In this document: piece after piece, positions 4,644 to 30,300 of the stretch | Numbering within the stretch: position 1 is the first letter of the stretch | Layout: each line of letters opens with the position of its first letter | Assembly: GCA_029560465.1 (NCBI GenBank) | Contig: JAKQKX010000073.1 | Coordinates: 79,411-143,410 of the forward strand | Length of the DNA: 64,000 nucleotides | Direction of reading: 5' to 3' | Source of the DNA: Candidatus Omnitrophota bacterium | GTDB lineage: Bacteria; Omnitrophota; Gorgyraeia; Zapsychrales; JANLHA01 | Translations under genes and position numbers: made by a program | The notes under the pieces: model-generated | The model's input: only the letters and a program-made list of their open reading frames with translations | What the model was told of the DNA's origin: nothing | The model's database searches: none

Positions 4644-5447
4644 ATGAATTTAGAAAACAAGAAACAAATAGCCATTATTATTTTGGCCGTGGGGCTCGGG
4701 CTTGTGGCTTCTGTAGGAACTGGCCACTATATTCAAACCCGGGTTGACCAGGAAACGGCTAAAATATCTCAAGAATTTGAGAATAAAAAAGTTAAGCCTA
4801 TGATGCGGGAGATTGATTCTTTGCGCAAGGAAATGCAGAAGCTTGCCAGCATGCAGGCGGCCACGGCTACAAAGGTCCAAGAGCAAAAACCCTCGGAATT
4901 ACCAGCCGTTCCCAAGTCATCATTGGCGTTGCGTACTCCTGCGGGGAAGCGGGCTTATACCGTCCGCATCGATTCTTTATCGGCCGTTGGTGGTTTGGTC
5001 AATCCAGGGGATTATATTGATGTGATTGCGCACATGGATATCCCCGACCCGGTTTCTAATTCTAATCAAAATGTGTCTTCCATGGTTTTTCAGAATATTC
5101 AGATATTGGCGGTCGGGACGAACCTTCAGGCGCCGGGCGGGTATGAACAGCAGCAGACCGCAAGGGCGCTTAATATTACGTTTGCGTTAACTCCGGAAGA
5201 AGCCAGTTTGATGTCTTTTATTGAAAAACACGGGAGAATGCAACTTATTCTTCGCGCTCCCGCTGAAACAGAAACGGAAATTATTCAGGCGGCATCCTGG
5301 AGCGCGTTAGCCGATTATGTGTTTGAAAAACAAGGAACGGAGTTAATAATTCCTAAAGAAAGAGCGGTTATTCAGCCTGTTTCTACCGGTCGAGTTGATG
5401 AAGTGAAGCCGTTTATTCAAATCTTTCAGGGAGGCAGAAGCCTTTAA
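4644..5447 (+). CDS. cpaB: Flp pilus assembly protein CpaB/RcpC-like
   Basis: N-terminal TM anchor. Conserved CpaB-like blocks 'AYTVRIDSLSAVGGLVNPGDYIDVIAHM', 'QNIQILAVGTN', 'ITFALTPEEASLMSFIEKHGRMQLILR'. Lies immediately upstream of a secretin. Confidence 0.65.
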   Translation: MNLENKKQIAIIILAVGLGLVASVGTGHYIQTRVDQETAKISQEFENKKVKPMMREIDSLRKEMQKLASMQAATATKVQEQKPSELPAVPKSSLALRTPAGKRAYTVRIDSLSAVGGLVNPGDYIDVIAHMDIPDPVSNSNQNVSSMVFQNIQILAVGTNLQAPGGYEQQQTARALNITFALTPEEASLMSFIEKHGRMQLILRAPAETETEIIQAASWSALADYVFEKQGTELIIPKERAVIQPVSTGRVDEVKPFIQIFQGGRSL

Positions 5448-12833: not shown

Positions 12834-12992
12834 ATGGGGCATAATAAGGGTAAGCAAGAAAAAGGACAAAACATAGTTGAATATGCCATCGTCGTGGCCT
12901 TGGTCGCATCAGCCATGCTTGCCATGAGCACCTACGTGTTTAGATCTATTCAGGCAACACAACAGGTGATTTCAGAAGGATTCAGAGATTAA
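12834..12992 (+). CDS. flp: Flp/Fap-type pilin (pilin 1)
   Basis: 52 aa. 'GQNIVEYAIVVALVASAMLAM' is a G/XXXXEY Flp prepilin processing motif plus hydrophobic helix. RBS GGAGGTGA 7 nt upstream of ATG 12834. The ORF track's longer start at 12768 adds non-pilin N-terminal residues. Confidence 0.7.
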   Translation: MGHNKGKQEKGQNIVEYAIVVALVASAMLAMSTYVFRSIQATQQVISEGFRD

Positions 12993-13056
12993 AATGGCGG
13001 AATGGAAAACCGCCTAGCTTTGAGTGGTATGGATCAAACTATAGGAGGAATTACTA

Positions 13057-13263
13057 ATGGTATACAAGAACAGAAAAAAGAAAGGGCAAAGCACCCTCGA
13101 GTATATTATCCTGGTGACAGGTGTTATTGCCATTCTGATTATTTTCTTAAACCCGACTAATGGTATTTTTAACACAGCGTTTAATTCAACCTTGCGTACG
13201 GGTACGAATGGCATGTTTGATATGGCCAATCGGTTACAAACATCTCGTTATGATAATCCGTAA
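13057..13263 (+). CDS. Flp-type pilin (pilin 2)
   Basis: 'KKKGQSTLEYIILVTGVIAILIIF'. RBS AGGAGGA. Confidence 0.7.
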   Translation: MVYKNRKKKGQSTLEYIILVTGVIAILIIFLNPTNGIFNTAFNSTLRTGTNGMFDMANRLQTSRYDNP

Positions 13264-13302
13264 TTAATTATCAAGAGACAAAAGTAAATGGAGGAAACAT
13301 AA

Positions 13303-13677
13303 ATGTTTAGAAAGTTAATTAAGAATAAAAAAGCACAGCAAACAGCCGAATACGCGCTGTTAATTTCTCTTGTTGTCGCGGCGGTCATTGCTATGCAAAC
13401 TTATGCGCAACGAACCATTCAGGCGAGAATTCGTGACGCTTCTGCCTATTTGACAGACTCTACAAGCGCCTTAGGTAGAACCAACCAGTATGAACCTTAT
13501 TATCTGGAATCTGATTACAATGTCCTGCGTGATGACAGGGAAGAAGAATTGCAAGGGCAAAGAGCCGACTCCTCTGGGTTGTTCCAGTTAGACACAACCA
13601 GCAATAGAACTCGCGCAACCGGCGGTTATCAGACATCCAATTATGACACCAATTTTGGTGTAATTAATGGTATCTAA
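13303..13677 (+). CDS. Flp-type pilin with extended C-terminus (pilin 3)
   Basis: 'KKAQQTAEYALLISLVVAAVIAM' (Ala at -1 instead of Gly), then 'QRTIQARIRDA'. RBS GGAGGA. Confidence 0.65.
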   Translation: MFRKLIKNKKAQQTAEYALLISLVVAAVIAMQTYAQRTIQARIRDASAYLTDSTSALGRTNQYEPYYLESDYNVLRDDREEELQGQRADSSGLFQLDTTSNRTRATGGYQTSNYDTNFGVINGI

Positions 13678-13730
13678 GATCCAGATAACTTAGTGTAACG
13701 AAAATCTGAATTTTAAGGGAGGAATTTTCA

Positions 13731-14051
13731 ATGTTTAAGTTTCTAAGAAAAATAAAAGGGCAAAGTACTTTAGAGTACGCCGTCTTGATTATCATCGTCA
13801 TCGGTGCTCTTTTATCTATCCAGGTTTACATCAAAAGAGGTGTTCAGGGTAGATTAAAGAGTGCAACAGATGACATCGGTGATCAATATTCACCGGGCAA
13901 CTCAAACATCCGTCGTGTTGTGACTACAGTTAGCAATACTGCTGAAACGTTCACCTATGGTGTTTCTTCAACAACCTTGAACACGGATGAAGTTACCGAA
14001 ACATTGCAGAACCAGGTTATCATTAACGCCGAACAGGAATTCTGGGGTTAA
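13731..14051 (+). CDS. Flp-type pilin (pilin 4)
   Basis: 'KIKGQSTLEYAVLIIIVIGALLSI' followed by the conserved 'KRGVQGRLK'. RBS AGGGAGGA. Confidence 0.7.
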   Translation: MFKFLRKIKGQSTLEYAVLIIIVIGALLSIQVYIKRGVQGRLKSATDDIGDQYSPGNSNIRRVVTTVSNTAETFTYGVSSTTLNTDEVTETLQNQVIINAEQEFWG

Positions 14052-14173
14052 TTTTAGTTTATTAGATAACCAGAATGTTTTAAGCTAAATAAAGTATGGC
14101 TTACTTGAGGGGGAGAACAACTTTCGGGTAAGCCATACTTTATTTATAATCAGTTTGAACATTAAAATACTCT

Positions 14174-14566
14174 ATGAAACTTAACAAGAAGGGCCAAAAT
14201 TCTTTTGTTGAATATGCCACGACTTTTTTTCTGGTTGTTTCGATTATTTCGGTGATGGGCACGTATGTCCGTCGAGTATTGCAGGGGCGCACAAGAGACG
14301 CCCTGTATTATATGGCCGGCACCGTGCAGGCGGATTATAATTGCGGTGGAGCCGCAGATTGCGCCCTTCCGAATCATGGCTCTTTTTATTTTCAATATGA
14401 GCCGTATTACAGCAATTCAACGACAACGCGATATACGGACACGACCACGACCATGACAGAACAGGGCGCCTTTCCTCTGGGGTCGGGGATCGTAGAGCAG
14501 ATTTTTAATCACCAGATTAGCGCCATAACAAACCAAACGCAGTTGCCACCGGCTTTGGCTGATTAA
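14174..14566 (+). CDS. Flp-type pilin (pilin 5)
   Basis: 'KKGQNSFVEYATTFFLVVSIISV' then 'RRVLQGRTRDA'. Confidence 0.6.
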   Translation: MKLNKKGQNSFVEYATTFFLVVSIISVMGTYVRRVLQGRTRDALYYMAGTVQADYNCGGAADCALPNHGSFYFQYEPYYSNSTTTRYTDTTTTMTEQGAFPLGSGIVEQIFNHQISAITNQTQLPPALAD

Positions 14567-14586
14567 TTAAAAATTTTAATAAGAAT

Positions 14587-14925
14587 ATGAGAAGAAAGTA
14601 TAAGAATTCCGCGCAAACATTTTTAGAGTATGCTATGCTAGTGAGTGTCGTTGTCGCGGTCCTGATTTCTCTTACCCCGTTATTGCGCAGAGGGGTCCAG
14701 GGGATGATTCGGGTTGTTTCCGACCAAGTCGGCAATCAATCCGGCGCGGAGCAGCCCGGCGGGCTCGATGGGCATTTGGTTGAGCAGATAATAGACGTGG
14801 ATCAAGCCTCCGTCAGGCGGCGGAGGGAAGATTTTGGAGAGACGCGGGTGGATTATGACGGCACGGTGTCACAAACAGTTACGACCACAACCACGAATTT
14901 AGGATTTCAGTATAGAGATAACTAA
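14587..14925 (+). CDS. Flp-type pilin (pilin 6)
   Basis: 'NSAQTFLEYAMLVSVVVAVLISL' then 'RRGVQGMIR'. Confidence 0.65.
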   Translation: MRRKYKNSAQTFLEYAMLVSVVVAVLISLTPLLRRGVQGMIRVVSDQVGNQSGAEQPGGLDGHLVEQIIDVDQASVRRRREDFGETRVDYDGTVSQTVTTTTTNLGFQYRDN

Positions 14926-14950
14926 AAGGCTTTAAAATGAGGGTACGGGC

Positions 14951-15259
14951 ATGAAGTTATTACGAGGGCAAAGCACTTTGGAATATGTGACGCTTATTAC
15001 AATTATTTTAGGGGTATTCCTGGGGATGGGGACTTATTTTAAAAGAGGGGTTCAGGGGCGGTGGAAGGAATCCGTTGACGGAATGGGCGACCAATACGAC
15101 CCGCGGGTGACTAATACAGATATTACTGAGCGGGCGAGTGGGTTTTCCTCCACGCGTATTACCACAATCCCGGTTAACGCCGGGGTCTGGACAATGCGGG
15201 ATGACGATTCCAACATGCTTGAAGAAAAGTACGGGGCGTCAAGAGTGGCCGCCTATTAA
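14951..15259 (+). CDS. Flp-type pilin (pilin 7)
   Basis: 'LRGQSTLEYVTLITIILGVFLGM' then 'KRGVQGRWK'. Confidence 0.7.
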   Translation: MKLLRGQSTLEYVTLITIILGVFLGMGTYFKRGVQGRWKESVDGMGDQYDPRVTNTDITERASGFSSTRITTIPVNAGVWTMRDDDSNMLEEKYGASRVAAY

Positions 15260-15279: not shown

Positions 15280-16995
15280 ATGAAATGTGACAAAGGAAAG
15301 ATTCGGAACCCTCGATTAGGCCAATCAGGGACGGAGTTGGCTATCTTTGGGGCCATGCTTATTTTTATAATCGGTTCCATTATTAAAGCGGGACTGCAGG
15401 TTAGTATGCTTAACAATATGCAATTACGAGCTTTGCGCCTTGCCTTGAGCGAATCTTACCGGACGTCCGAAGGCGAGTACATTGGTTTTGCTGGGGACGA
15501 AGGCGCGAACTCCCGGAACGTGGCGTCTATTGTTATTTTGGAAGACAGATTGAATGTGGATGCGGGTAAGAAATTCGGGTCTCGGGACAGGTTCCCGATG
15601 ACAGCCAGCGCCAGCGCTTCTATGACAAAAAATTTATTCCGTCCGACAGATTTTGGAGATCGCCGGGACCTGCCGGTGTCGGATATTTATATTAACGGCC
15701 AACGCTTTCCGTTATTAGGGGCGGATTTCAAAACAGTCACCCTTGCCAACGCTGACGGAAGCCGACCTGCCTGGATACCAGCGTGCAATGGCGCGGCACC
15801 GGCATATTTTAATTCCAGCGCCCCGCCCGCGAATCCTCCCTACGGAATGTGCTGGTGGAATAGCTGTGTTACTTATTCGAGTTGTGTTTATGTGGGATAC
15901 GGGGGCAATTATGAATTAGGTTACATGGGGGAATGTGTTATGGCAACAGGAGGGGCCGGCACGGGAGAGTATGATTTGGTGACAAATTCTGCGGGATGTT
16001 CGTTGCTGTTTACTATATCAGGCAATTATCCTAAGAGTAAAACGTGTTGTTTTGGGACCACATGTCAAAAAAATTGTAATAATCTTCCTCAAGACGTCCG
16101 TTTTGATTATGATTTTGACGGCGTATCTGATGTGCCTGCCGGGAGCCGGGACGGACAATTCTGGCAGTGGTTTTTAATCGCCGGGGTAGTTGACGGAACA
16201 GCGTTAACCTTGCCGTGGGGTGGCGTGCCGGGAATTTATGTTGATCCCAGCGGAGAGAAGGAATCGAAGAACGACAGCGTTGATGTTGACGGCGATTATT
16301 ATGAAGAGTCTATCCTTAGTTATTCTGCCTTGAGTTCTGGCGTTCTTCGAACCGTGAACGTGATTGACGGGGAGGAAGGAGATATGACCAGTTCATTCCT
16401 TTCGGATGCCCGTCAAGCCGGGGAATGGCGTTTTGCCGGGACCATCGGAGGCTCTTGTGGAGTTGAGCCGACAGGGAATTGCGTTATCGGATCAACGACG
16501 ACCGGAGAGAATGCTCTGGGGGTGTGTTCGAATTATAAATGCCTTGCTCGTTCAGTTGGTTTTTCTGAGGGCGCGCAGGTTTATACATTTACGGAATCTA
16601 ATCCAGGCCAAGAAACAGGTCAGGGAATGTATCTTCGGACGGAAGAAGGCCCGATTTTTAATGCCAACATGTCGCAATACACCCGGAGCACGGAAAGGCA
16701 TGACCAGCTAGATGTTGTGGAGCGGTTGGTTCAGCTTACCAAGGACACGGGCAGGTTTTGTGCCGACGATGTTAATCCTCGCGTCTGGGGAACTTCGGCG
16801 TGGGCGCGCGATAATGGGCTGTATGGAATTCAGAATCCGGTCGAAGTTTGTACCCGGCCCAGCACGGGAACCAATTGTTATATGGGGGGCGTCGCACAGT
16901 TGACATGTTTTGACAGGGACAACTTGATGTTGTTTGTCAGGAGCCGGATTGCCGATCTTAGAGGGAGGCGTTGGATAAGAAGATACGCCCCGTAA
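15280..16995 (+). CDS. TadE-like pseudopilin with large Cys-rich extracellular domain
   Basis: N-terminus 'GQSGTELAIFGAMLIFIIGSII' matches the TadE-family signature (G/XXXE[LF]A + hydrophobic helix). The 571-aa body has about 25 Cys in clusters (CWWNSCVTYSSCVYVG, CCFGTTCQKNC). Confidence 0.6.
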   Translation: MKCDKGKIRNPRLGQSGTELAIFGAMLIFIIGSIIKAGLQVSMLNNMQLRALRLALSESYRTSEGEYIGFAGDEGANSRNVASIVILEDRLNVDAGKKFGSRDRFPMTASASASMTKNLFRPTDFGDRRDLPVSDIYINGQRFPLLGADFKTVTLANADGSRPAWIPACNGAAPAYFNSSAPPANPPYGMCWWNSCVTYSSCVYVGYGGNYELGYMGECVMATGGAGTGEYDLVTNSAGCSLLFTISGNYPKSKTCCFGTTCQKNCNNLPQDVRFDYDFDGVSDVPAGSRDGQFWQWFLIAGVVDGTALTLPWGGVPGIYVDPSGEKESKNDSVDVDGDYYEESILSYSALSSGVLRTVNVIDGEEGDMTSSFLSDARQAGEWRFAGTIGGSCGVEPTGNCVIGSTTTGENALGVCSNYKCLARSVGFSEGAQVYTFTESNPGQETGQGMYLRTEEGPIFNANMSQYTRSTERHDQLDVVERLVQLTKDTGRFCADDVNPRVWGTSAWARDNGLYGIQNPVEVCTRPSTGTNCYMGGVAQLTCFDRDNLMLFVRSRIADLRGRRWIRRYAP

Positions 16996-17014
16996 GGATT
17001 ATAGGTGAATTGTT

Positions 17015-17314
17015 ATGAAAACACGGAAAAGGAATCAAAGGAAAAAGCTTTATAAATGGCCGGGACAGGTGTCTTTGGAGTTTATGTTTGGGATGATCGG
17101 TGTCGTTTTGCTTGTGGTCGGGATGATTCAGGTTTTTGCCTGGACAGGCAATGACCTGATGAAACGTTTTAACTCTCATGAAGCTCTTTTGGTTTCTCCG
17201 GTTGGCACTTCTCAACCTGCGGCTCCTTTAGAACAGGTCCGGCCGATGTTTTATTCGGTCACAAAAATAAACGCAACGGTTAATAGCAATATTTTTGGAG
17301 AGGAAGCTCCTTAA
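17015..17314 (+). CDS. small TadE-like pseudopilin
   Basis: 'WPGQVSLEFMFGMIGVVLLVVGMIQ' pilin-like N-terminus. 99 aa. Its 3' end overlaps the next ORF start by 20 nt. Confidence 0.45.
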   Translation: MKTRKRNQRKKLYKWPGQVSLEFMFGMIGVVLLVVGMIQVFAWTGNDLMKRFNSHEALLVSPVGTSQPAAPLEQVRPMFYSVTKINATVNSNIFGEEAP

Positions 17315-20300
17315 TTCTAAATTTATTACCCCGGGGGTCAAGTTGTTGCATGTTTTTTACAAAGGCGTAAGGCGAGTCCGAAGATGGCAACATAAAAAGC
17401 GGAATGCTTTTTTCTTTGTTCCCAACAACAGCGGTGATTCCACAAGAATGCCGCCTCGGCATGTTGCCGGGCAAGTCGGGCTGATCCTGATTCTGGCCGC
17501 GGCCATAGGGCTGATTTTATATGCGGTCACGATTAATATCGGCAGGATTTCTCAAGGCAAAACCTTGACTATTATTGCCGCCAACACGGCGGCATCCAAG
17601 ATGGCGTCGTTTATCGCCAGTTATGGCCAAATGCTTTTTATGACGTCTTTGGGGGGAGAAACAAAAATTTGTGCCTGGACCGGATTTTTAGTAAAGCTCA
17701 TTGCGGCCATTATTGTTGTGGTCATTGTTGTTATTTGCGCCGCTACCGAACAATGTGAGGGATGGGGGTTAGCCGCTGCGATTGTCGCGGCGGTTCTTGT
17801 TGTGGCTGCCGCGGTTATTGATGTCACAATAACCCAGCCGGGCATTACGTCCATGTGGAACAAAATGATGAAGGACTCGATGGGGCCGAAAGAAATGGCC
17901 GTGGAACTGGGGGTGCAAACCGCCTTGATGACAGCGGTGAATGACCCTGCCCAAATTCCGGATTTATTCGACTTTGACACTGACGGTTCTTTTGGCAATT
18001 TAGCGGACCCTCTTAATAAAACCACGGCCCCGGATTATATTTCCCGCTTTGCGTATTATTATACCCGCCGCCTTCAAGGTATTCCTGATTTGAATCTTAC
18101 GATCATTGATGACTTCTTGTCTGCGTTGACGGATTTCTTGTTTGGAGGCGATCCCAATCGCTGTACGGTTTGGGGGTGCGACACGGATGATTGGGGCCTT
18201 ATTGATCCCCTAGATTGCCTGTTAACTCCCGGGCACCCCTGTTGCCCGGCCAATCCCGTTGGGAACATGCGTTTCCCGGCCATGTGTGACCCCTGTTGCG
18301 TCATTAACGATCCAGACCTTCGGCCAGCGTGCTGTGCTACGGGAACTTGCGTGGAGGACGAGGGGTTTGCCGGCGGGGATCCAAACACATGTGATGAGAG
18401 AAGCCCTTACCACACCCCGCTTCCTCCCGCAGCGCCAAACGCAAGCTTGACGTACCCGTATATTTTTAGAGGCATAAATGAAAACTCCACGAACAATAAA
18501 AACAGTTCAGGCGCTTGGGTTCCGGCCAATATTTCTTTTCGTGAATGGCTCGGCTTTGACGACGAGCATCATCAATACGCCGTTAATCCGGCCCGGCCTA
18601 ATTGGCATTATTTAATTGACGGAACCGGGGCGAATTTAGACCACTCGCAGTTGATCCGTTCCGCTCCGTTGGAGTATGATTTTTATATGGAAGACGCAAC
18701 CGGTTATTATTTGAATGACGAGAGGCCGGGGATTTTTCCGTTTTTCTATAAACTGGCGGACTGGGGTATGGATTTACAGGCTTTGACCTATGGCGCCCTG
18801 ACGCCGGATCCGCCTGATCCTCATCCGGTCCGGGATAACCTTGAGTGCCATTTATGCGATGTAGACGGGATTGCCGCGGGCACGGTCCCTGCGGTTTGCG
18901 CCGGAATGACGTATCCTTCTGAAATTGGTGTTGCGCTTGAACTTCCCGAAACTCCGGATACAGCGCTTTATAGCGGCGGCTGGTGTGTGGATGCTGCGAA
19001 TACCGGAGCCGACGGCGACCCACCCCAGTTGTTGGACGTGGTCCCCAATATTGTTGATCTTTTAGCCGATGATGCTGTCTGCGCTCAGGATGTGGGCGGC
19101 TGGAAAAGAGGGGCTGATCAATTCTGTGATCCGCCTGACCAGTGGCCTTATATGGCCGAATGCATAAAAGCCGGTGGTCCTTCCGGCGGGGGGGGGCCAC
19201 CTTGCGTGGAGGTCGATCCCGTAAGTGGGACTTCTTGGCCGGTTGATTGTGCTTGCGGAACCGGCGGGGCTTTGCCTCCGACGCCTCCCGTAGACCGGAC
19301 GTTGGCCGCGAACAACTTTCAATATGTGACCACCAACTGGCCTGATGATAAATTAGATGATTTTATCTATGGATTGCCGGAATTCTATGAATGGGCGACA
19401 ACCCTTTTTGGCAAAGATAAGGATACTTTAGAAGACACTTTCGATGATTGGTATGAGGAAGCCGCTACTTGGATTGAAGCGCCGTGCCCGAGCGGTAATG
19501 CTGCGGATTGTGCGGGAAGTTGTACCGGAGACGTGGATGGCGGATACTGGTATGTCTGGCGCGATGATTTGGGCTCTTTCTATACTCCAATTGTAAATTG
19601 GCTGAACCCACCCGATGCGGATCTTTATGTTGGTTCCGGGTGTTTTACGAACAGCTCCGCAGACCCGGCGGTTTGGTGTGTTCCTCCGCCTCAAGCGGCC
19701 GCTAATAAATATGCGGACCCCACATATCTGGGTTTTCAGTCAGGATATAACGGGTTGGAATGCCCTGGAGTAAGCCAGGAGGAACAGGCGTCTTTTGACA
19801 TTAGCGCAGATGGCCGAGGCGACATTGAAGATGTTATTGCGTGTTTTAATTGGAACCTTTTTGATCCGGCTGAAGATCCGTCCGGGGCCCCAATTATTCA
19901 CCCTGTAACCGGGGCGCAGGCTGTAGGAAATTTTGAAAAATTTGAGGCGTGTAAGTGGGATTGCGACAATAATCCGGTTAATTCCATAAACAGCTGTCCG
20001 ATCTTGCCCAGGTCGCTGGTGCCGGGGTTTGATGCTTTAATATTTACGGTTCCAATGCCCGAAGCAGATTTGATCGCGTTAACATTGTGTTTAGGAACAG
20101 AATCGATTCCAACCTGTAATGATGATTGTTCGTCGTTGCCTGGCGGATATGGCATCCCCGCTTTTGTTCCAACGTCCGATAACGCGGCCCTTCCGGCGCC
20201 AGACACGTCTTTGTTGACCAATTTAAGGGCCCTGTATGCTTTTTGCGAGGCGAATCCAGCTTCAAGTCTTCCAAACCAGTGCCGGGACCAGGGGACAACG

Positions 20301-21341
20301 ATTGCTTGTGCCAGCCCCACCATTTTGTCAGACGCCTTAAACTGTTCCTGCACGTGGTACGGGTTACCGACGGATCTTTTGGGAACCTGTGGACAGCTTT
20401 GCGGTATTGGGGCGACCCCGTTTTTTGATGCCATTGAAACAGCCCTTGATGATAATATAGGCTCGTGCGGAGAAACTGATCCTGGAGAATGGAAAGATTT
20501 GTTAGACCAGAGCGTTTTAGCCGCGGGGAATCAGGCGATGAAAATGTCAAAACGCTTGAATTTGTTGGAGGGACGAGAGGAAGAGGCGATTTCGATAAGG
20601 AATGTGTTGTATAATGCGCTTCTTCATATCGACGCCTTTCTCACGGGCCCGGCCCAGGGGCTTATTGATGCTTGTAAGGCATGGGGGAATATTTATCCTC
20701 CGGCCACCACCTCTTTCGCCATTTATGCCTGGCAGGATCTCCCCAAAGATGTTTATAACACGATTCGGGGGGATTGGCATGTTGTTAAAGTGGAAGTTCG
20801 AACTCCGGGGCGGTGTAACGCCGCGTGTGGAACGGATCGATGGCCGTATATTGACACATACACCAAAAGCTGGGGGATGAAACGCTGTTATGAATTAAAG
20901 GAATGGACAGGCAGGGTCAAAGCCCGGGTGATCCGTTATGACGAGGATACTGTCGGCAGCCGGATACTTTTCCCGGATGGAACTCTATTATGGAAACCAC
21001 AATACTATCATCCGGAAGGGTCAGATCAGGATCCTACGGATTTGGAGCTGACCTGCGCTATTATGATTGATCCCAATATCGCCGCCCAGACATGGGAATG
21101 GGGGTGGAGGAGCGCTTTTATGGTTAATCAGACGCCGACAGCCAGCGCCACGCCACCTAGGGGGTCGCCCGAGTATTTGGATTGCTGGAATTTTCTGCAT
21201 GAAAGTTTGTTAAGATATGGTTATTCAACGGCGACGTGCGCTCAATATTTTCTAGGAGGCGGATCGGGGTACAGTGGAGACCAGGGGTTTCGTGTCCGTT
21301 TTGTGGAGTGTGATAACGCCTTTATTAGTGGAAATAATTAG
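17295..21341 (+). CDS. TadG-like large Cys-rich membrane-anchored protein (putative pilus-associated adhesin/tip protein)
   Basis: 1348-aa ORF. After an in-frame Met at 17448, 'GQVGLILILAAAIGLILYAVTINIGRISQGKTLTIIAANTAASKMA' resembles the TadG N-terminal domain (TM helix followed by D/N.GR...LQ..ADAAALA). Two further very hydrophobic helices follow. The ~1100-aa extracellular region has many Cys clusters (CCPANPVGNMRFPAMCDPCCV, CCATGTC). The true start may be 17448 rather than 17295. Confidence 0.55.
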   Translation: MERKLLNSKFITPGVKLLHVFYKGVRRVRRWQHKKRNAFFFVPNNSGDSTRMPPRHVAGQVGLILILAAAIGLILYAVTINIGRISQGKTLTIIAANTAASKMASFIASYGQMLFMTSLGGETKICAWTGFLVKLIAAIIVVVIVVICAATEQCEGWGLAAAIVAAVLVVAAAVIDVTITQPGITSMWNKMMKDSMGPKEMAVELGVQTALMTAVNDPAQIPDLFDFDTDGSFGNLADPLNKTTAPDYISRFAYYYTRRLQGIPDLNLTIIDDFLSALTDFLFGGDPNRCTVWGCDTDDWGLIDPLDCLLTPGHPCCPANPVGNMRFPAMCDPCCVINDPDLRPACCATGTCVEDEGFAGGDPNTCDERSPYHTPLPPAAPNASLTYPYIFRGINENSTNNKNSSGAWVPANISFREWLGFDDEHHQYAVNPARPNWHYLIDGTGANLDHSQLIRSAPLEYDFYMEDATGYYLNDERPGIFPFFYKLADWGMDLQALTYGALTPDPPDPHPVRDNLECHLCDVDGIAAGTVPAVCAGMTYPSEIGVALELPETPDTALYSGGWCVDAANTGADGDPPQLLDVVPNIVDLLADDAVCAQDVGGWKRGADQFCDPPDQWPYMAECIKAGGPSGGGGPPCVEVDPVSGTSWPVDCACGTGGALPPTPPVDRTLAANNFQYVTTNWPDDKLDDFIYGLPEFYEWATTLFGKDKDTLEDTFDDWYEEAATWIEAPCPSGNAADCAGSCTGDVDGGYWYVWRDDLGSFYTPIVNWLNPPDADLYVGSGCFTNSSADPAVWCVPPPQAAANKYADPTYLGFQSGYNGLECPGVSQEEQASFDISADGRGDIEDVIACFNWNLFDPAEDPSGAPIIHPVTGAQAVGNFEKFEACKWDCDNNPVNSINSCPILPRSLVPGFDALIFTVPMPEADLIALTLCLGTESIPTCNDDCSSLPGGYGIPAFVPTSDNAALPAPDTSLLTNLRALYAFCEANPASSLPNQCRDQGTTIACASPTILSDALNCSCTWYGLPTDLLGTCGQLCGIGATPFFDAIETALDDNIGSCGETDPGEWKDLLDQSVLAAGNQAMKMSKRLNLLEGREEEAISIRNVLYNALLHIDAFLTGPAQGLIDACKAWGNIYPPATTSFAIYAWQDLPKDVYNTIRGDWHVVKVEVRTPGRCNAACGTDRWPYIDTYTKSWGMKRCYELKEWTGRVKARVIRYDEDTVGSRILFPDGTLLWKPQYYHPEGSDQDPTDLELTCAIMIDPNIAAQTWEWGWRSAFMVNQTPTASATPPRGSPEYLDCWNFLHESLLRYGYSTATCAQYFLGGGSGYSGDQGFRVRFVECDNAFISGNN

Positions 21342-21362
21342 AAAAGTATTTAAGGACGAAAT

Positions 21363-21806
21363 ATGTTTCGGCAAAGGAGAAGTGCTCAATCTATATTGGA
21401 GTATATGACCTTGATTGTTTTTTTATTATCAAGCTTGTTTGTCTTTCAAGGTTATATTTTAAGGGGTTATTATGGAAGCTGGAAAAAGGCGGGGGATGCT
21501 TTTGGCTCAGGGCGTCAGTATGACCCCAGGCCTTTTGGGAATTATGGAGATGGCGGCGGGACTTTAGAATGTTTTTTTGATGCCACCCACTGTACGTCAG
21601 GGACCGGCCCGGCCCGGCCGTGTACGTTAATTAACAGATGGATTTCAAAGGCCTGTTATGATGCGACACCCTGTGATTGCACGATGCCAATCGGAACGAC
21701 GGGGTATATCACACAGTGTTTGCAGTGTTTAGAAAATTGTAGCGAGTCTGTAGCTGCGGGAGCGCTTTGTGGGGACGTGACGACATCGAGGGTTTTAATT
21801 GATTAA
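21363..21806 (+). CDS. Flp-like pilin with Cys-rich C-terminal domain (pilin 8)
   Basis: 'RRSAQSILEYMTLIVFLLSSLFV' Flp-type N-terminus. The 100-aa tail has 12 Cys (CTSGTGPARPCTLINRWISKACYDATPCDCTM...CLQCLENC). Confidence 0.55.
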   Translation: MFRQRRSAQSILEYMTLIVFLLSSLFVFQGYILRGYYGSWKKAGDAFGSGRQYDPRPFGNYGDGGGTLECFFDATHCTSGTGPARPCTLINRWISKACYDATPCDCTMPIGTTGYITQCLQCLENCSESVAAGALCGDVTTSRVLID

Positions 21807-21841
21807 TGATTAGGGGTTTATAAGGAGGCATAGGTTAAGCG

Positions 21842-22696
21842 ATGTATGTTTCTCTATTTTGTATATTTATATCTGCGACAATGTTTGGGTATTTTGTCAT
21901 TCCGTTAATTTATAATAAATCCGTAGAAGTTGGCCAAAAACGGGCGCATAAACTTTCTTCAAAACTGGACAGGGTTTTGCCCCGCTCCAAGGTTGAAAAG
22001 ATAACCCGCTTTTATATCATTGCTCCGATTGTTTTTGGAGGGGCTTGCTATATGTTTTTCCCGGAAGACCTGCGGCTTTTCGGTATAGGAATCGGACTGG
22101 TTTTCGGTTTAATTTTTCCAGGAGTTTATAACAACCTCCTTATAGGGCAAAACAGGAGGAAATTTGATGACCAGTTAATAGATGCGCTTATGATTATGTC
22201 AAGCTCCTTCCGAGGGGGGTTGAGTTTGGTTCAGGCCATGGAAGCCGTTGTGGAAGAGATGCCGGATCCGATAAACCAGGAATTTTCGATTGTTTTGGGG
22301 GAGAACAATATGGGGGTTTCTCTGGATGAAGCCCTTAATCATCTTTATAATAGGCAGCCTTCTCCGGCCGTGCAGCAAATGACAACGGCTATTTTGCTGG
22401 CAAGAGAAACAGGGGGGAATTTGCCCAGTATTTTTCAGCGGATTGTGAATGTTATTCGTGAACAAAAAAGAATAAAATCTCAGATAGACACTTTGACAGT
22501 TCAAGGAAAAATTCAAGGTGTTGTTATGTCGGCCTTGCCTATTATGTTTTTTACGATTATTTACGGAACGAATCCGACTTTCTTTGATCATATGTTTAAG
22601 TCCACGGTAGGGAGGGGCATGCTTGTTTATGCGGTTTTTTCGGAAATTTTAGGCGCCATTATGATTTGGAAGATTAGTAGTTTTAAAGATTTTTAA
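21842..22696 (+). CDS. tadB: TadB-like inner-membrane platform protein (T2SS-F domain)
   Basis: T2SSF-domain pattern 'LIDALMIMSSSFRGGLSLVQAMEAV...EFSIVLGENNMGVSLDEAL...TAILLARETGGNLPSIF'. Flanked by TM helices. Confidence 0.7.
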   Translation: MYVSLFCIFISATMFGYFVIPLIYNKSVEVGQKRAHKLSSKLDRVLPRSKVEKITRFYIIAPIVFGGACYMFFPEDLRLFGIGIGLVFGLIFPGVYNNLLIGQNRRKFDDQLIDALMIMSSSFRGGLSLVQAMEAVVEEMPDPINQEFSIVLGENNMGVSLDEALNHLYNRQPSPAVQQMTTAILLARETGGNLPSIFQRIVNVIREQKRIKSQIDTLTVQGKIQGVVMSALPIMFFTIIYGTNPTFFDHMFKSTVGRGMLVYAVFSEILGAIMIWKISSFKDF

Positions 22697-22734
22697 TAAA
22701 TCAAACAAAGCCTAACCTAAGGAAGAGGTATATC

Positions 22735-23625
22735 ATGTTAATGCTGACATTTGTTTTGACGATGTGTTTTTTGGCGGGATTTAGTTTTGTTGTTGGGCTT
22801 TTTCCGATGGAAATGGAGAGCCGGCCTACGTTAAAAGCTTTTGGATATGAGGTGGCCCCGGCAAAGAAGAAAAAGAATGCGACGTCCATGTTGCGTGCTT
22901 TAGCCATGTTTAATAAACCATTGTGTTCAGGGGGCCTTCGGAAGAGAATTTCAAAAGATTTATCTGTGGGGCATGTTAACTTGACGCCGGAAGAATTTTT
23001 CTTAATGAAGGAAATCGGTATTATTTTGGTGCTTTTGTTGACTTTTCAGATGATTCAGCCAGACATGATTCTTTTTTGGCTTTTTATGAGTCTTTCTATT
23101 GGTTATATGATGCCGGAATTTTGGCTTAAGGGAAAAATTAAAAAAGTCAAAGCTGTTATTGTGAAGGAATTGCCGAATGCCATTGATTTGCTTGGCCTTT
23201 GTGTGAATGCTGGGTTGGACTTTATGTTGGCTTTGAAGTGGGTTGTTGAGAAATCAACACCATCGGTCATGATTAACGAGCTTAATATCCTTTTGCAGGA
23301 AATCAACGTTGGAAAGACCCGCCGTGACGCATTAAAAGATTTGGCGGTAAAATTTGACCTTCCGGAAGTTTCTTCCTTTTCAAGGACGCTTCTCCAGGCA
23401 GATAAAATGGGGACCTCTGTTTCCGAAGCCCTGAATCTTTTGTCTGAAGACATGCGCCTTGCCCGATTCCGCAGAGGGGAACAAATGGCCATGAAAGCGC
23501 CTATGAAGCTGTTGGTGCCCCTGTTGTTCTTTATTTTCCCTGTTGTCGGAATTCTTGTCGCCGGCCCAATATTTCTGCAGTTTATTGAGGAGAATCCGTT
23601 GTCAGAATTGGGTGGGAAAAAATAA
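22735..23625 (+). CDS. tadC: TadC-like inner-membrane platform protein (T2SS-F domain)
   Basis: 'LPNAIDLLGLCVNAGLDFMLALKWVVEK...ELNILLQEINVGKTRRDALKDLAVKFDLPEVSSFSRTLLQADKMGTSVSEAL' T2SSF pattern. RBS AGGAAGAGG. N- and C-terminal TM helices. Confidence 0.7.
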   Translation: MLMLTFVLTMCFLAGFSFVVGLFPMEMESRPTLKAFGYEVAPAKKKKNATSMLRALAMFNKPLCSGGLRKRISKDLSVGHVNLTPEEFFLMKEIGIILVLLLTFQMIQPDMILFWLFMSLSIGYMMPEFWLKGKIKKVKAVIVKELPNAIDLLGLCVNAGLDFMLALKWVVEKSTPSVMINELNILLQEINVGKTRRDALKDLAVKFDLPEVSSFSRTLLQADKMGTSVSEALNLLSEDMRLARFRRGEQMAMKAPMKLLVPLLFFIFPVVGILVAGPIFLQFIEENPLSELGGKK

Positions 23626-24162: not shown

Positions 24163-24326
24163 AAAATGGCAAAAATTATAAAAATTATAGGAGGAGCAGA
24201 AAAAAAACTAAATAGTTTTTTGTTGAATTCTTTCAGCTTGTTTCAAAAAATTCCTTCCACTTGTATTCGAGGGCACCAGTTAGCCCATTGTTTCGTTAAT
24301 AATCTGGTTAATTTCTAGAAAAATAT

Positions 24327-27300
24327 ATGAATTTTAGATTGGACAAAAAACTAGGTGCCGAAACTGTCTCTAAAGGTATATTAGAGAATAGGTTAATTTC
24401 TGCGTCTGAAAGTATTGTCCAAAATGAATTAAAAGAAGAGTCTTTTAAAAGTAGATTTAAGTCTTGGATTCGGCTTGTTGCCCTTGTTGTTGTTTTAATT
24501 TTCCTTCCAGAGCAGGTTAGCTGGGCTTTCAACTACAATCCCGCTGTTCTTTGGGGACACTCGTCTTCGTCTGTTCAGGTGATTGACTTGGATTCTCCCA
24601 ATCCCCAGGTTTCTCAAGAAGAAATGATGGCGATACAGCTTTCCTCCGGTGTCGCCAATCTTTTGGAACAAATTGAGAACAAAGAAAATGCACAAATTAA
24701 ACTCGGGCTGTCTTCAGATATAAATAATTCTCTTTCTAGTGAGAAAAGCGTTTTAATTTCTGCGAAGAGGAAAATCACTCCGGATTATGTCCAATCTGTT
24801 AAATCTTGGATTCGTAATCCTAATATTCACCCATTTAATTGTGGTGTTTATGCTTTAAAAGATTTGTTAGATGGCAACAAAATTTCAACGTCTTTGGCTG
24901 AAATTGCTGTGGCAACTCTTTCCGTCGATCTTTTAAATAATATTATTGAGCCTGGAGAAAAATTCTTAAAAACTTCTCTTTTTGCGATTGAAGAAGTTGC
25001 CCGCGGATATGGTCTTAATGTTCAGGCCGTCAAGGTTGACACGCAAGACATCCTTTATCTGAAAACTCCGTTTATTGCCAATTTTGGTTCGGAACACTTT
25101 GTGACTGTTCGGTCCGTTGATGCTCAGAATGTGTACTTCTCTGATATTGGCAAGCAACAGTCTATGCCACGAGATCAATTTAAAGAGAAGATCAGCGGTT
25201 TTGTTCTTGCTGTCAATTTGGATCGCCAAGAAGATATGGAATACGAACCCATTTCAGACGCCATGAAGGTGTTTGTTTGGGGTAATAAATGGATAGACAG
25301 ATCAGATGATTTGCCCGGGTTGTTGTCTGGGGCGGATGTTTTTGCTGCTGTAATTTCCATGGTGGTTCAGATTGTCATCGCTTATATTATGGGTGGCCCG
25401 CTTGGAGTTATTATTTCTTTAGCTTCTTCAACTTTTGGTTCTGCCGTAGGGGAAGCGTATTATGTTAACTGTGTGAATGATGGCGGAGATGATTGTGAAA
25501 GCAATGCGTTTATTTTAAGCACAGCTATTACAATTGCTGTTTCAGTAGGTTTGAATTATATGGCCGGGATAGGATCTGAGGCCGGAAATGCAGCGGGCGA
25601 GGCTGCCGCCAGTGGTGGGGAAACCGCATTGGAGTCTACTGCCAGTACCGGCGCAACCAGCTCCCTTAGCACAGCTTTACAAAATGCGGCAGTTGGTGCG
25701 GCAGTTGGTGCGGCTCTCGGGTGGGCCGTTGCGAAGATGACGGGAAAAGATGCTACCAAGGCGGCGCTTATTGGTGGGTTAATTGGAGCTGCAGGAGGAT
25801 TAATTGCTGGTTATGGTGGGTTTGGTGAGGGGATTCAAAGCGCTTGGCAGAGTTTGATAACAAAACTTCAGAATATATGGTCTAGTATTAAAGGGTTTTT
25901 TAATAAGGTTTTTGGCGGCGGCGCTGCATCTACGGCAACGAGCACTACTTCCACAACGAGCATGACAGTGACTCAGCGGTTGTGGGATATTGCGAAGGCC
26001 TTTGCCAAAGGCTTTACGGTCGGGATGATTAAGGCTTATGTTCAAGTTAAAATTGCCGAATTTTTAGAAGAGCATTTGGATATTGATAGTGAAATTTTGA
26101 AATCGGTTTTAGTTGGGTTGATTTCTTCTTTGGCTGCGGATTTGGCGGTGGGTGTTGTTGCCATGGGATTGGACGCGGCCGCAGATGCGTTGTTTGACAA
26201 GCCTGCCAGTGGTGATACCGAGGATTTGGGCTGGCGTGAAATGTTGGGCATGAAAGATGACTCGGAAGCGTCAAAGAAACAATATGCCAATCAGCAGGTT
26301 GAAAAAGCGCAAATTAAGGCAAAGGCTGAAGGGAAGGGGCCGCTTACTGGTGATCAAATTGCGCAAGTTAAAGCGGACGCAATGAGTAGCTATAGTTCTT
26401 TTAAGTTAAATCTAGCAGACATGGGAATGATGGCCCTTCAGCGGTTAGCAGGGGGGATGGGGAGTTTTATATTAAGATATATATTTAAAGATAAATTCGA
26501 CCCAAGCTCCATGATGTCTCAAATTCTTGGCAATTTTGGGTCTTTAATCGGGATGACGCTGTTTAATGTGATCGCTTACGGAGACACTTGGGGAACAACA
26601 TATGATATTAAGAAAGAAAAAGACGAAAATGGAAATGATGTATATACTTATGAAAATGTTGGAACGAAAGAGAACATAAAATCTACTACAACTACAACCG
26701 AAGAGGGGAAAACGGTAACGAGTCATTATTCCGGAACGCATAATGTCACCATGCTTGATACGGATGGTAATCTAGATAACGGTTATGAAAAAGCGTTTGT
26801 TCAGGGATCTTTTTTGGGAACGATTTGGCGGGGTGCGGTTCAAACATTGGTATCGATGTTGTTGGCCCTTGCCCTTTTTGGTAAAGAAGATTTTTCAGAA
26901 GCTGAAGGGGCGGATGGGAAGACGCGAGACAAGGATGAGCGAGCCAAGCAATTTTGGACGTGTAGTTTAATTTTCTTAGGGTCTGTTCTTACGCAGGGTA
27001 TATTCGCATCAATAGCCGGAATGTTTAAAACGTCTGATTTGGCTGCTATAGGAACAAAAGATTATGAAAACCAACAAAAAGCAGGCGGAAAAACAGACGG
27101 GGAAGACAAGCAAAGCATAGGTTCTATTTTCTTGAATGTAACAGGAAATGCTTTTCAAGAGTTTGCTTCTAATTTAGTGGGCGATTGGGTTGGAACAGCC
27201 CCCACTGGCGGAAAGTTTGCTAACTTGTCTTCCTTTGGCACCTATGTTGAATCTATGCAAAAAATGGGCGGCATTACTTTAGATACTGTGTTGAAGGCCC

Positions 27301-30300
27301 AGGAAAAAAGAGAAGAGCTTGAAGAGAAAAGAGAAGAAGCAAAAGAGCAAATGGGTGGATATAATGCTCCGGAGGAGTGGTATGCCTGGGGTTGGGATGA
27401 CAGTATGGCAATTCCAGATGACCTGAAAGACGATGCAGAGAAAACAGATGAAGACATGGCCCAGGAAGCGGGGTTGCAGTTTTTGATTATGGCGGAAGAT
27501 AACCGGGTCGGTTTCTGGGTAGACAATTTTTCCCAGGTGGCGGCGATGTCTGCCATTACTAATTTTAAAAATAGTTTTGAATATGTAGCGTCCGCAATTT
27601 CACACGATTCCGGATACATAAAATTTTACCGGGATTTTCTTGGTTTTACCTTCCGTCCCATTGCCAAAGACGGGTCTTTTCTTGGGAAGAATTACATTCA
27701 ACTAAAAAGAAAAACAATCGGAGAGGATTTTGATCCCGAAAAAGAGGCGACAGAGTTGGTTGCCAAAATAGAAGAAGCAAAGGAAAAAGGCGACATAGAA
27801 GCGGACGGTACCCTGCTTACTATCGAGATGGAAGCCGACGTGGACTCGGCAGAAGATGTGGATGCTTTGGTTAGTTTTATGACGCTGGTAGAGGAAAAGC
27901 TGTCTGGAACAGCGGAAGAATCAAAGGGTGAAAAGGGTGATGTGCTTATTAAGGCGAAAGTGTTTTCCTCTAAAACTCAGGAAGAGGGGGGCACCGAAAG
28001 TCTTATTGCTGGTTACGGATCAGGGGATATAAAGCTAGTAGCCGGTTACGGAGCGGGAAGTCAACAGACAAGTGATTTTATGGTTGTGCCAAGACAACAT
28101 ATTCTTATTGGGGCAAATAGTGCGGACTCCGCAAACTATATTTCTTACAATTTAGTCGGAGCGGGAAATAAGGGAAGAGGCTGGGTTCAGACGGATACAG
28201 CCACAGGGGATGTTTATGAGGGGTTCCTTTCGTATAATCCATATACAGGACAATATTCTTATGATGGCCGGGCGTTCACGGTTGAAGAAGCGAATAAATT
28301 AGGCTTGGATCCTTCTATAATGAAGATTATCGCTAAGAAAGAAGAAGGAGATAAATCAGGAGGGGCGGAAGTAGATCTTTTTGGTGAAGGTTTTACGAAG
28401 TCGAAAGAATTGTCTATTATGGAAACAAGCCCCTCGGAATCGGAAAACTTTGGTGGAGAAGCGCAAACCGGTTACAATCGCTTGGTCGCGCTTGGTTTTG
28501 AGGATTTGGGGTTTGCCATTTATGATAAAGATGCGGGAACAGACGGGCAGGTTGATGGTGGGGGGAGTGTTTATCGTAGAGTTTTACAAGGCGGAGTTGA
28601 AGGGTGGCGGGCTAGGGCAGACGCAAGGGCGGAATATGCTGACCAGATGCGTGAGGCCAAAATTAAGCGTATTATTAACTGGCTGGTTCCGTTTGTGGAT
28701 ATTTGGGGAGAAGGCGAAATTCCGAATCCGGAAAAGGTTGTTTCTCCCGACAAGATGATTGAGGAAACGGTGAGTGCTATGCCGCTGACACAAAAGCAGC
28801 GGCAAGGTCAGGCAGAGGCAAAATTTAAAGCTGCCCAGTCGACGCCGATTCGTGTTAAGAATGCTATGTTAGAGAAGATAAAAGAGTTGGATGCGCAAAA
28901 AGACGCTGATCAGATAACGGAAGAAGCTTATACGACAGAGGTCGCTAAGTTGAACGCTTCCATTGCTAAGATAGATGAGCTTTTAAATGTTGACCCGGAG
29001 CAGGGTGTTTATGACACCTTGGCCACTGTTCCTGTTTATGCTGGTTCTTCTAAGCACAGATATATGCAGCTTTTTGAAGCCGGCGTATTTCTGGGAAATG
29101 CAGAAACAAATAAGTTAATAGGAGAATCGACAACTTCGTATGCAAAATATGAAAACGGAATAATCCAAGGTGGCGTTGTTGGTTGGGTTTTGGGAGATGG
29201 AATTGTTAAAAATCAGGGTGAAGTTACTTCTTTAGTAGGGAAAGCAGAAAATGTCCGCGCTGTTATGAAACAACTGGGTTTGGATAACTTTATTAATATG
29301 TCTGAAGAAGAGAAAAAGCAGGTTACGGATAAATTAATTGCGGCGTTGACGGAACAAGGTCAGGACGGGCTTTTGGCGAGCGTGAAGATTGGCTTTGAAG
29401 GCGGGGCCTTGGTTGCTGATAGTCAATTTGAAGGCGAAGGTGAGACCGACCCGGGAACCAAGCTTAGAAAGAGGATGTCAGCTGCGGATGTTGAACTTTT
29501 GAAGGCGCTTATTGCCACTGCCGCCTTAACGAGCGGATTGTCGGAAGAAGAGAGAATCAAGGCGGTAGAAGAGCTTTCTGTTGCCTTAAATGACGTGCAA
29601 AATATGGGTGATGTGGAAGCCCGGCTTATGGATATGACGACCCAGGATAATCCGATTAAAGATTTTCTGATTAACGCCTTGGAAAACACCTATGCTGGAA
29701 GTCCTACCAAGAATGTTACGATTAATGCTATGAATAAGTCTATGACAGAAGATGGGTGGGATCAGTATACCGCCAAAATGGAGGCGGGAACTAAACTAAA
29801 AGCCAGGGCAGAGGCGATTATTTCCGTTATTGAAGAGGTGGGTTTGGGGGATGTGCTTGGTCTTTCCGAAGAAGAAAAGAAAACCAAGGGCGCGGAACTT
29901 ATTGCCGCTTTACAGCAGGCGGGATTATTAGATAAAGATCAAAAAGTTCCAGACCTGTTTGATGCAGCCACATTGCAATCCATGAAGCTTGCGCTTGGAA
30001 CAATGTTGTCTGGCGGGGTTGCCGATGCAATTGTGGCAGATATGTTAAATCATCAGATATTGAATACCCTTATTAATGTGTTTACCAGCGGCCTTTCTGA
30101 AGAAGATAAAAAGAAGGCCGCTGTTTCTTTGCAGGGTGTGGAAACGATATCTGCTCTTAAAGATGCGGTCGTGAATTTTGCCACGAAAGAACCCCTGGCA
30201 GATGTCATCCGCGCTAGTGAAATTGATGATCTTGTCTTCAGTTACCATGGGGCGCTTGATGATGCCGGGAACGTAAGGTCAGATTTTGCTTTTAATTTGG

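Follow-up and report, generated by a model that had tools for sequence, protein, structure and literature searches.

The 64,000-nucleotide (nt) stretch of DNA analysed here (the window) comes from Candidatus Omnitrophota bacterium (GenBank assembly GCA_029560465.1, contig JAKQKX010000073.1, positions 79,411 to 143,410 of the forward strand), and the genomes closest to it are those of Candidatus Omnitrophota. According to Pfam and open reading frame (ORF) annotation, the window contains a giant ORF preceded by a pilus locus of the Tad type (type IVc). The gene order begins with a PpiC-type rotamase, RcpC/CpaB, a secretin with a TonB_C tail, a TadZ-TadA fusion, a DUF192 protein and an unknown protein of 567 amino acids (aa), and continues with seven Flp-type pilin genes, four genes encoding proteins of 571, 99, 1332 and 147 aa, TadB, TadC and finally the giant ORF. 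The four-gene block, flanked by Flp-like pilin genes upstream and by tadB/tadC downstream, is our subject, in particular the 571- and 1332-aa proteins, which are candidates for unusually large, cysteine-rich minor pilins.

The two large ORFs of the block lie on the forward strand exactly where a previous model-made reading of the letters alone (the sequence-only reading) had put them, at 15280-16995 (571 aa) and 17295-21341 (1348 codons). The 571-aa minor-pilin candidate (15280..16995, + strand) starts with a leader that extends to G14 and a putative cleavage site, G|QSGTE, with a Glu at +5 that precedes a hydrophobic alpha1 helix, and the family alignment reveals a conserved [GA]|Q[ST][AG]xELAIFG, that is, a class III prepilin signal with Glu at +5. 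The protein has 19 cysteines (rather than the roughly 25 counted before), one in the putative leader and 18 in the mature part, as well as two Asp-rich motifs, DYDFDG at residue 276 and DVDGD at residue 335. An AlphaFold2 model features a helix spanning residues 11-63 (53 residues) followed by beta strands, at low confidence (predicted local distance difference test score, pLDDT, of 58). The adjacent 99-aa small pseudopilin candidate (17015..17314, + strand; WPG|QVSLEF, Glu at +5, no cysteine) is encoded between the two large genes, a position that is the same in all Tad-linked relatives. It matches Class_IIIsignal with E=0.054, and its orthologue in L008, the locus of a distant Omnitrophota relative, matches PF07811 (TadE) with E=0.013 (16 bits versus a cut-off of 22.9).

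For the large cysteine-rich TadG-like candidate (17343..21341, + strand), the previously given length of 1348 aa holds for the maximal ORF, counted from the first TTG at 17295, but the best-supported start is the TTG at 17343, yielding a protein of 1332 aa. Translation from this codon leaves the gene clear of the 99-aa gene, whose end is at 17314; a G-run is located 7-11 nt upstream, and a 99%-identical database protein begins at the equivalent position (MLHVFYKG...). A start at ATG 17448, raised in the sequence-only reading as the possible beginning of an unrelated membrane protein, was rejected, as this codon is the internal Met36 and the basic N-terminal extension, which begins before it, is shared by all homologues. 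The extension (residues 1-43; 17343..17471, + strand) holds 10 K/R and 1 D/E, is apparently cytoplasmic and ends in the conserved G43|Q44. Next comes hydrophobic segment 1 (QVGLILILAAAIGLILYAVTINI; residues ~44-66; 17472..17540, + strand), with an invariant Gln in first place, no Glu at +5 and a sub-threshold match to PF13400 (Tad) that is detailed below. Segments 2 and 3 (residues ~114-133 and 142-164; 17682..17834, + strand) together make up a hairpin, and a loop cysteine, C110 (17670..17672, + strand), conserved in 94% of the family, lies between segments 1 and 2. The three strongly hydrophobic stretches noticed before are thus all present, and with three segments in its first 170 residues the large protein departs from the single N-terminal hydrophobic helix of pilin-like topology. 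The remainder is an ectodomain of ~1170 aa with 51 cysteines (17835..21338, + strand). It carries the Asp-rich motif DFDTDG (residue 210) and finishes in a conserved beta region whose last residues are GFRVRFVEC, and no Pfam or PDB relative of it was found. The conserved Asp-rich motifs of both large proteins look like Ca-binding loops.

These features recur across the large family, whose members are 1000-1700 aa long. The processing site is conserved as G|QV(A/G)x(I/L)LIL, with G-1 in at least 90% of members, an invariant Q+1 and no acidic residue at +5, and a Kyte-Doolittle scan detected 2-3 hydrophobic segments within the first ~220 residues of 135 of the 144 full-length members (~93%). The extreme C-terminus (GFRxKFVxC), predicted to be a strand, is among the best conserved parts, F1320 and C1323 being invariant or nearly so. 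One member contains inserted fn3 (E=4e-8) and Pur_ac_phosph_N (E=5e-18) domains, and the ectodomain therefore tolerates modular insertions.

The fourth gene of the block encodes a 147-aa Flp-like protein (21363..21806, + strand; A|QSILEY) with a Cys-rich C-terminal part (10 cysteines). Conserved downstream of the large gene, it is the eighth Flp-like gene of the locus and the only one inside the block, the other seven (12834..15259, + strand) being located at about 12834-12992, 13057-13263, 13303-13677, 13731-14051, 14174-14566, 14587-14925 and 14951-15259. The first two are short and were missed at an 80-aa ORF cut-off; one of them matches Flp_Fap (E=1.4e-5) and the other Class_IIIsignal (31 bits). 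The eight paralogues range from ~50 to 147 aa. A [GA]|Q....EY-type processing motif is found in six of the seven upstream genes, and in that at 14174-14566 (G|QNSFVEY) the Glu falls at +6. The [GA]|Q site is common to all 11 pilin-like genes of the locus, which suggests that a single peptidase acts on them.

We determined the cysteine content of the block and found it to be strongly elevated in three of the four proteins: 19 residues (3.3%) in the 571-aa protein, 54 (4.1%) in the large protein and 10 (6.8%) in the 147-aa protein, compared to 42 in 4908 residues (0.86%) for 17 other proteins of the window (binomial P for the excess of 8.5e-7, 3.6e-20 and 6.9e-7, respectively). While the enrichment claimed for the large protein is confirmed, its clustering into CC and CxxC motifs had been overstated, as there are only three CC (residues 300, 318 and 330) and two CxxC (315 and 502), the other cysteines being dispersed along the ectodomain.

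The parity of these cysteines was analysed in an alignment of 145 full-length members of the large family that share 31-99% identity with the window protein. Beyond hydrophobic segment 3 they have between 27 and 101 cysteines, an odd number in 130 of the 145, and when the loop cysteine C110 is added the count becomes even in 132 of them (P ~6e-26, for sequences that are related and not independent, parity nonetheless having held through many changes in cysteine number). Seven other residue types, used as controls, are even in 67-76 of the 145. Moreover, among 26 variable cysteine columns we detected seven reciprocal-best pairs that are gained or lost together (phi 0.63-0.77); the partners are 9-43 residues apart in the window protein, and 200 shuffles produced no such pair. 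In the 571-aa family the cysteine count of the mature part is even in 14 of 15 members. The CxxCH motif does not occur in any large-family member. Since parity persists across so many changes in cysteine number and cysteines come and go in pairs, there is strong evidence from these alignments that nearly all ectodomain cysteines form disulfides, in agreement with the disulfide-stabilised extracytoplasmic domains that had been proposed from the single sequence. If so, the ectodomain and the C110 loop must reside in the same oxidising compartment, which fits a predicted topology with the N-terminus inside, segment 1 running out, the hairpin running in and out again, and the ectodomain outside.

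Homologues in other Tad loci, which the sequence-only reading had recommended looking for, were indeed found. The order 567 aa, Flp, 571, 99, 1332, 147, tadB, tadC and giant ORF is maintained in L001 (86% identity), L002 (67%), L003/L004 (30%) and L008 (27%), so that, with the window, it is conserved in five independent Tad-linked loci in which the large gene stands beside TadE/F-like genes. In L008 a called gene of 85,803 aa comes after the module (16741-23252). L005 (8428-14530; = L006) contains an adjacent pair of 520 and 1509 aa. The 10 kb to either side of this pair are free of tad and giant genes, and its neighbours are genes for radical SAM/SPASM, glycosyltransferase and response-regulator proteins. 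Thus, judging from the conserved order in the loci and from the adjacent pair, the 571-aa and large families behave as a unit, and the stand-alone pair may be a spare tip cluster; dispersed tip clusters in Myxococcus offer a parallel (PMC12075869). A word-indexed search returned 28 relatives of the large protein, whereas an exhaustive profile search recovered 418 clusters (50% identity) at E<=1e-3, 245 of them at E<=1e-30; the 571-aa protein has 14 detectable relatives. Shorter database matches were considered as domain-only relatives and rejected, being N-terminally truncated fragments without Pfam domains. All named members of both families belong to Omnitrophota, and none has a Pfam domain on record.

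The assignment to TadE and TadG made in the sequence-only reading is an interpretation to which the Pfam and NCBIfam thresholds lend no support. PF07811 did not match the 571-aa protein or its 12 homologues even at E<=10 (0/13), nor did it match the family consensus, and PF13400 had no match in the window large protein and matched only 2 of 35 members, the better with E=0.013 and below the gathering score. The absence of TadE/TadG N-terminal domain hits, named beforehand as an outcome that would speak against the assignment, is therefore what the curated thresholds give. For the N-terminal consensus of the large family, PF13400 is nevertheless the top match (E=0.017, 15.9 bits versus a cut-off of 22.3), and the match is correctly placed, covering model positions 1-41 of 47. 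Neither Tad_C (PF09977) nor a vWA domain was detected by Pfam in the 35 members. For comparison we used two proteins of one Ralstonia tad locus. Of these, the TadG-type protein (551 aa, 6 Cys) obtains 22.0 bits with PF13400, just under the cut-off, and passes Tad_C with 34.1 bits, and the TadE (163 aa, 3 Cys), as positive control, reaches 51 bits with PF07811. An hmmsearch of this tad locus with the N-terminal profile of the 571-aa family ranked the TadE site first, at only 4.4 bits. Alignment of the 571-aa and large families by hhalign gave no homology beyond the aligned processing site, and a PDB sequence search with the family profiles returned nothing relevant. In their anatomy, the proteins do resemble TadE and TadG well: a class III prepilin signal, with a short basic leader, Gly or Ala at -1 and Glu at +5 ahead of a hydrophobic alpha1, is present in the 571-aa family and in the 99-aa protein (G|QVSLEF), and the large family is devoid of Glu5, a lack that marks the apical subunit (GspK/PilK), the role to which TadG/CpaL has been assigned (PMC13533445).

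The surrounding genes, all on the + strand, include RcpC/CpaB (4644-5447), the secretin (5536-7479), the TadZ-TadA fusion ATPase (7659-9821) and the TadB-like and TadC-like platform proteins (21842..23625), each with a T2SSF domain. The C-terminal TonB_C domain of the secretin (E=6.9e-14) is an unusual fusion for an RcpA/CpaC-type secretin. TadZ (ParA/MinD-like) and TadA (T2SSE ATPase) are joined in a single 720-aa ORF, an arrangement that recurs in L003 and L008 and has also been reported for Bdellovibrio (10.64898/2026.07.08.737194). The unknown 567-aa protein (10730-12433) has 11 cysteines and a weak N-terminal HTH_32 and is encoded in a low-GC stretch (37-39%), and its position is kept in L001, L002, L003 and L008, the L008 version being 978 aa long. 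Directly upstream of rcpC lies the PpiC/SurA-like rotamase (3626-4639), which West-Roberts et al. (10.1101/2023.11.21.568195) describe as conserved in such Omnitrophota loci; it could help the Pro-rich (8%), Cys-rich ectodomains to fold. The giant ORF (24312..64000, + strand), the conserved downstream neighbour of the module, is open to the window end and encodes more than 13,229 aa with just 5 cysteines (0.04%), in sharp contrast to the 3.3-6.8% of the three Cys-rich proteins next to it. A blastp comparison of the four block proteins with the giant ORF revealed no similarity and gives no support to the engagement of the giant protein suggested in the sequence-only reading.

In our assessment it is moderately likely that the 571-, 99- and 1332-aa proteins, probably together with the 147-aa protein, constitute a TadE/F/G-like tip-initiation (minor-pilin) complex of an Omnitrophota Tad pilus, with the large protein at its apex. 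They would be functional counterparts of TadE, TadF and TadG (KilL/M/N, CpaJ/K/L), and the earlier suggestion of pilus-tip candidates agrees, by analogy, with the tip role proposed for TadE/F/G in Myxococcus, Bdellovibrio and Caulobacter (PMC12075869, 10.64898/2026.07.08.737194, PMC13533445). All of these proteins would be inserted in the inner membrane via an N-terminal hydrophobic helix and, as the shared motif suggests, probably be cut by one prepilin peptidase at the common [GA]|Q site. Their ectodomains would fold in the oxidising periplasm with ~9 disulfides in the 571-aa protein and ~26 in the 1332-aa protein, one of the latter presumably linking the C110 loop to the ectodomain. By analogy with known tips, the 571- and 99-aa proteins, which keep Glu+5, may sit below the apex, with the 1332-aa protein (without Glu+5) capping the filament. 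The complex could then prime the assembly of Flp-like pilins into a filament that passes the RcpC/secretin conduit. Carried to the pilus tip, it may form a rigid head, resistant to proteases, that touches a host or prey cell or the giant surface protein encoded nearby.

Several observations weigh against such a complex. The main difficulty is the conserved hydrophobic hairpin of the large protein together with its long basic N-terminal extension: the 43 extra residues and the two further hydrophobic segments fit a simple pilin poorly, and they would hinder the passage of the protein from membrane to filament. We know of no pilin that has such an extension plus extra hydrophobic segments. On the level of homology, the 571-aa and large proteins do not match any Pfam or NCBIfam family at threshold; a profile of the N-terminal 80 residues of the large family, run against 5.8 billion proteins, retrieved only four family fragments and no PF13400 proteins, and by hmmsearch it did not find the TadG-type protein in the Ralstonia tad locus. 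The AlphaFold2 model of the 571-aa protein is poor, and Foldseek against the PDB returned nothing pilin-like for this model or for that of the large protein, which was less than full length. Finally, no prepilin peptidase (TadV/CpaA) ORF was seen in positions 1-24000 of the window, despite 11 genes with prepilin-type signals there; the peptidase has likewise been noted as absent from the tad loci of Bdellovibrio.

In the leading rival, only the 571- and 99-aa proteins would be true minor pilins, and the 1332-aa protein would be a three-pass inner-membrane protein that is not extruded and whose disulfide-rich domain remains periplasmic, helping to scaffold or align the Tad machine or the route by which the giant protein is exported. 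The conservation of the hydrophobic segments (2-3 in 135/144 members), the long, basic, apparently cytoplasmic extension, the lack of Glu5 and of a significant TadG Pfam match, and the apparent pairing of the loop cysteine C110 with the ectodomain, which fits a membrane-proximal anchored arrangement, all speak in its favour. We nevertheless regard it as rather doubtful, as the conserved G|Q equals the processing sites of all other pilin-like genes, the large gene occupies the TadE/F/G slot with pilin genes on both sides, a missing Glu5 is just as much a hallmark of apical subunits (PMC13533445), and the portable pair with a 571-aa-like gene outside tad loci is typical of exchangeable tips rather than core parts. 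Ranked second is an apparatus that works as a type II secretion-like pseudopilus piston, with the Cys-rich proteins as a GspH/I/J/K-like tip that pushes or docks the giant protein, or fragments of it, through the secretin. West-Roberts et al. call the locus type II secretion-like (10.1101/2023.11.21.568195), in Tad-linked loci a giant ORF comes after the module without exception, and an apical subunit without Glu5 recalls GspK. Pilus and pseudopilus are inseparable by sequence alone, yet the parts are of Tad type (RcpC, a Flp_Fap-like pilin, a TadZ-TadA fusion and a split TadB/TadC), the block proteins have no sequence similarity to the giant ORF, and the L005/L006 pair occurs without a tad or giant gene nearby, so that we hold this piston to be improbable.

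The high cysteine content and the few CC and CxxC motifs could point to binding of metals (Zn, Fe-S) or haem rather than to disulfides, the proteins being redox or metal proteins that lie in the locus by chance. Haem or metal binding was rejected on the grounds of even parity in 145 diverse members, pairwise gain and loss of cysteines and the absence of CxxCH; in addition, there is no Pfam metal-cluster domain and the cysteines are in a region predicted to be outside the cytoplasm, which makes this explanation very unlikely. More daring than the tip-initiation complex that we prefer is the idea that the large family represents a new, Omnitrophota-specific class of tip, in which a pilin-like helix and a hydrophobic helical hairpin precede a head of ~1100 residues that is knotted by disulfides and has a new fold. 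Leaving the cell with the tip, the hairpin would insert into the envelope of the host or prey or anchor the giant protein, and the pilus would act as a harpoon or docking device coupled to that protein. We put this forward as a long shot.

Part of this picture is already published, namely the locus, the concept of a Tad tip and the existence of disulfide-rich tips. A conserved locus upstream of Omnitrophota giant genes has been described (10.1101/2023.11.21.568195; PMC10066038; 10.64898/2026.06.07.730766), these accounts, in the passages searched, covering the core machine and small genes with class III signals and making no mention of cysteine, pseudopilins or these large conserved proteins. 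What is new is the recognition of two Omnitrophota-wide families without domain or fold match as a likely minor-pilin module, the exceptional size of both proteins, the extra hairpin in the large one, and the parity evidence for complete disulfide bonding. This parity signal is a simple, sequence-only demonstration of a fully disulfide-bonded family, and it supports the membrane topology too. Omnitrophota are ultra-small, uncultured and probably predatory or parasitic bacteria, and their record-size genes adjoin this secretion/pilus locus. Should the 571- and 1332-aa proteins indeed form the pilus tip, they would most likely be the first point of contact with host cells and prime candidates for host-range determinants; they would also provide targets for antibodies or tags to visualise the apparatus, and a handle for testing whether pilus and giant protein cooperate.

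How does the module compare with known systems? Like TadG/CpaL/KilN, the large gene is located in a tad locus beside small TadE/F-like genes, and its product has an N-terminal hydrophobic helix without Glu5, many predicted disulfides and extra genomic copies elsewhere. The premise of the sequence-only reading that Tad minor pilins are normally not Cys-rich is outdated, as the Kil tip complexes of Myxococcus are reported to have numerous predicted disulfides (PMC12075869). KilN4, the Myxococcus counterpart of TadG, is described as containing a domain, composed of a beta scaffold and two long helices, that lacks a homologue in the PDB (PMC12075869), and the large protein likewise has a large C-terminal module without known fold. 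The conserved extreme C-terminus of the large family is reminiscent of the beta strand at the C-terminus of TadG/CpaL, which completes the pilin-like sheet and recruits partner minor pilins (PMC13533445). Unlike TadG, however, the large protein lacks a significant PF13400 match, Tad_C and vWA, is 2-3 times longer (1332 aa versus 551 aa in Ralstonia and ~600 aa for CpaL), has 4% cysteine versus 1.1% in the Ralstonia comparator, and adds the 43-residue basic extension and the hairpin, whereas the one comparator examined (Ralstonia) has a single N-terminal helix.

Among the smaller partners, the class III signal, Glu+5 and hydrophobic alpha1 of the 571- and 99-aa proteins recall TadE and TadF, as does their location next to a TadG-like gene, and the 571-aa protein would be an extended minor pilin like KilL, which wraps around its partners. 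The 571-aa family differs from TadE in the lack of a PF07811 match in 13 members, in a length ~3.5 times that of Ralstonia TadE (163 aa), and in the 18 mature cysteines and Asp-rich DxDxDG-like motifs. With Bdellovibrio the locus has in common the TadZ-TadA fusion, and the Omnitrophota lineage is likewise thought to be predatory or parasitic. Without sharing sequence or fold similarity with GspK/PilK-PilX and PilY1/PilC, the locus proteins parallel them in having an apical subunit devoid of Glu5 and Asp-rich motifs that resemble Ca-binding loops. Tip proteins of more than 1000 residues also have a precedent in the PilC/PilY1 adhesins at the pilus tip (PMC13533445, citing PilC residue 1051), the difference being that in the large protein described here the adhesin-sized domain is fused to a pilin-like helix instead of forming a separate protein.

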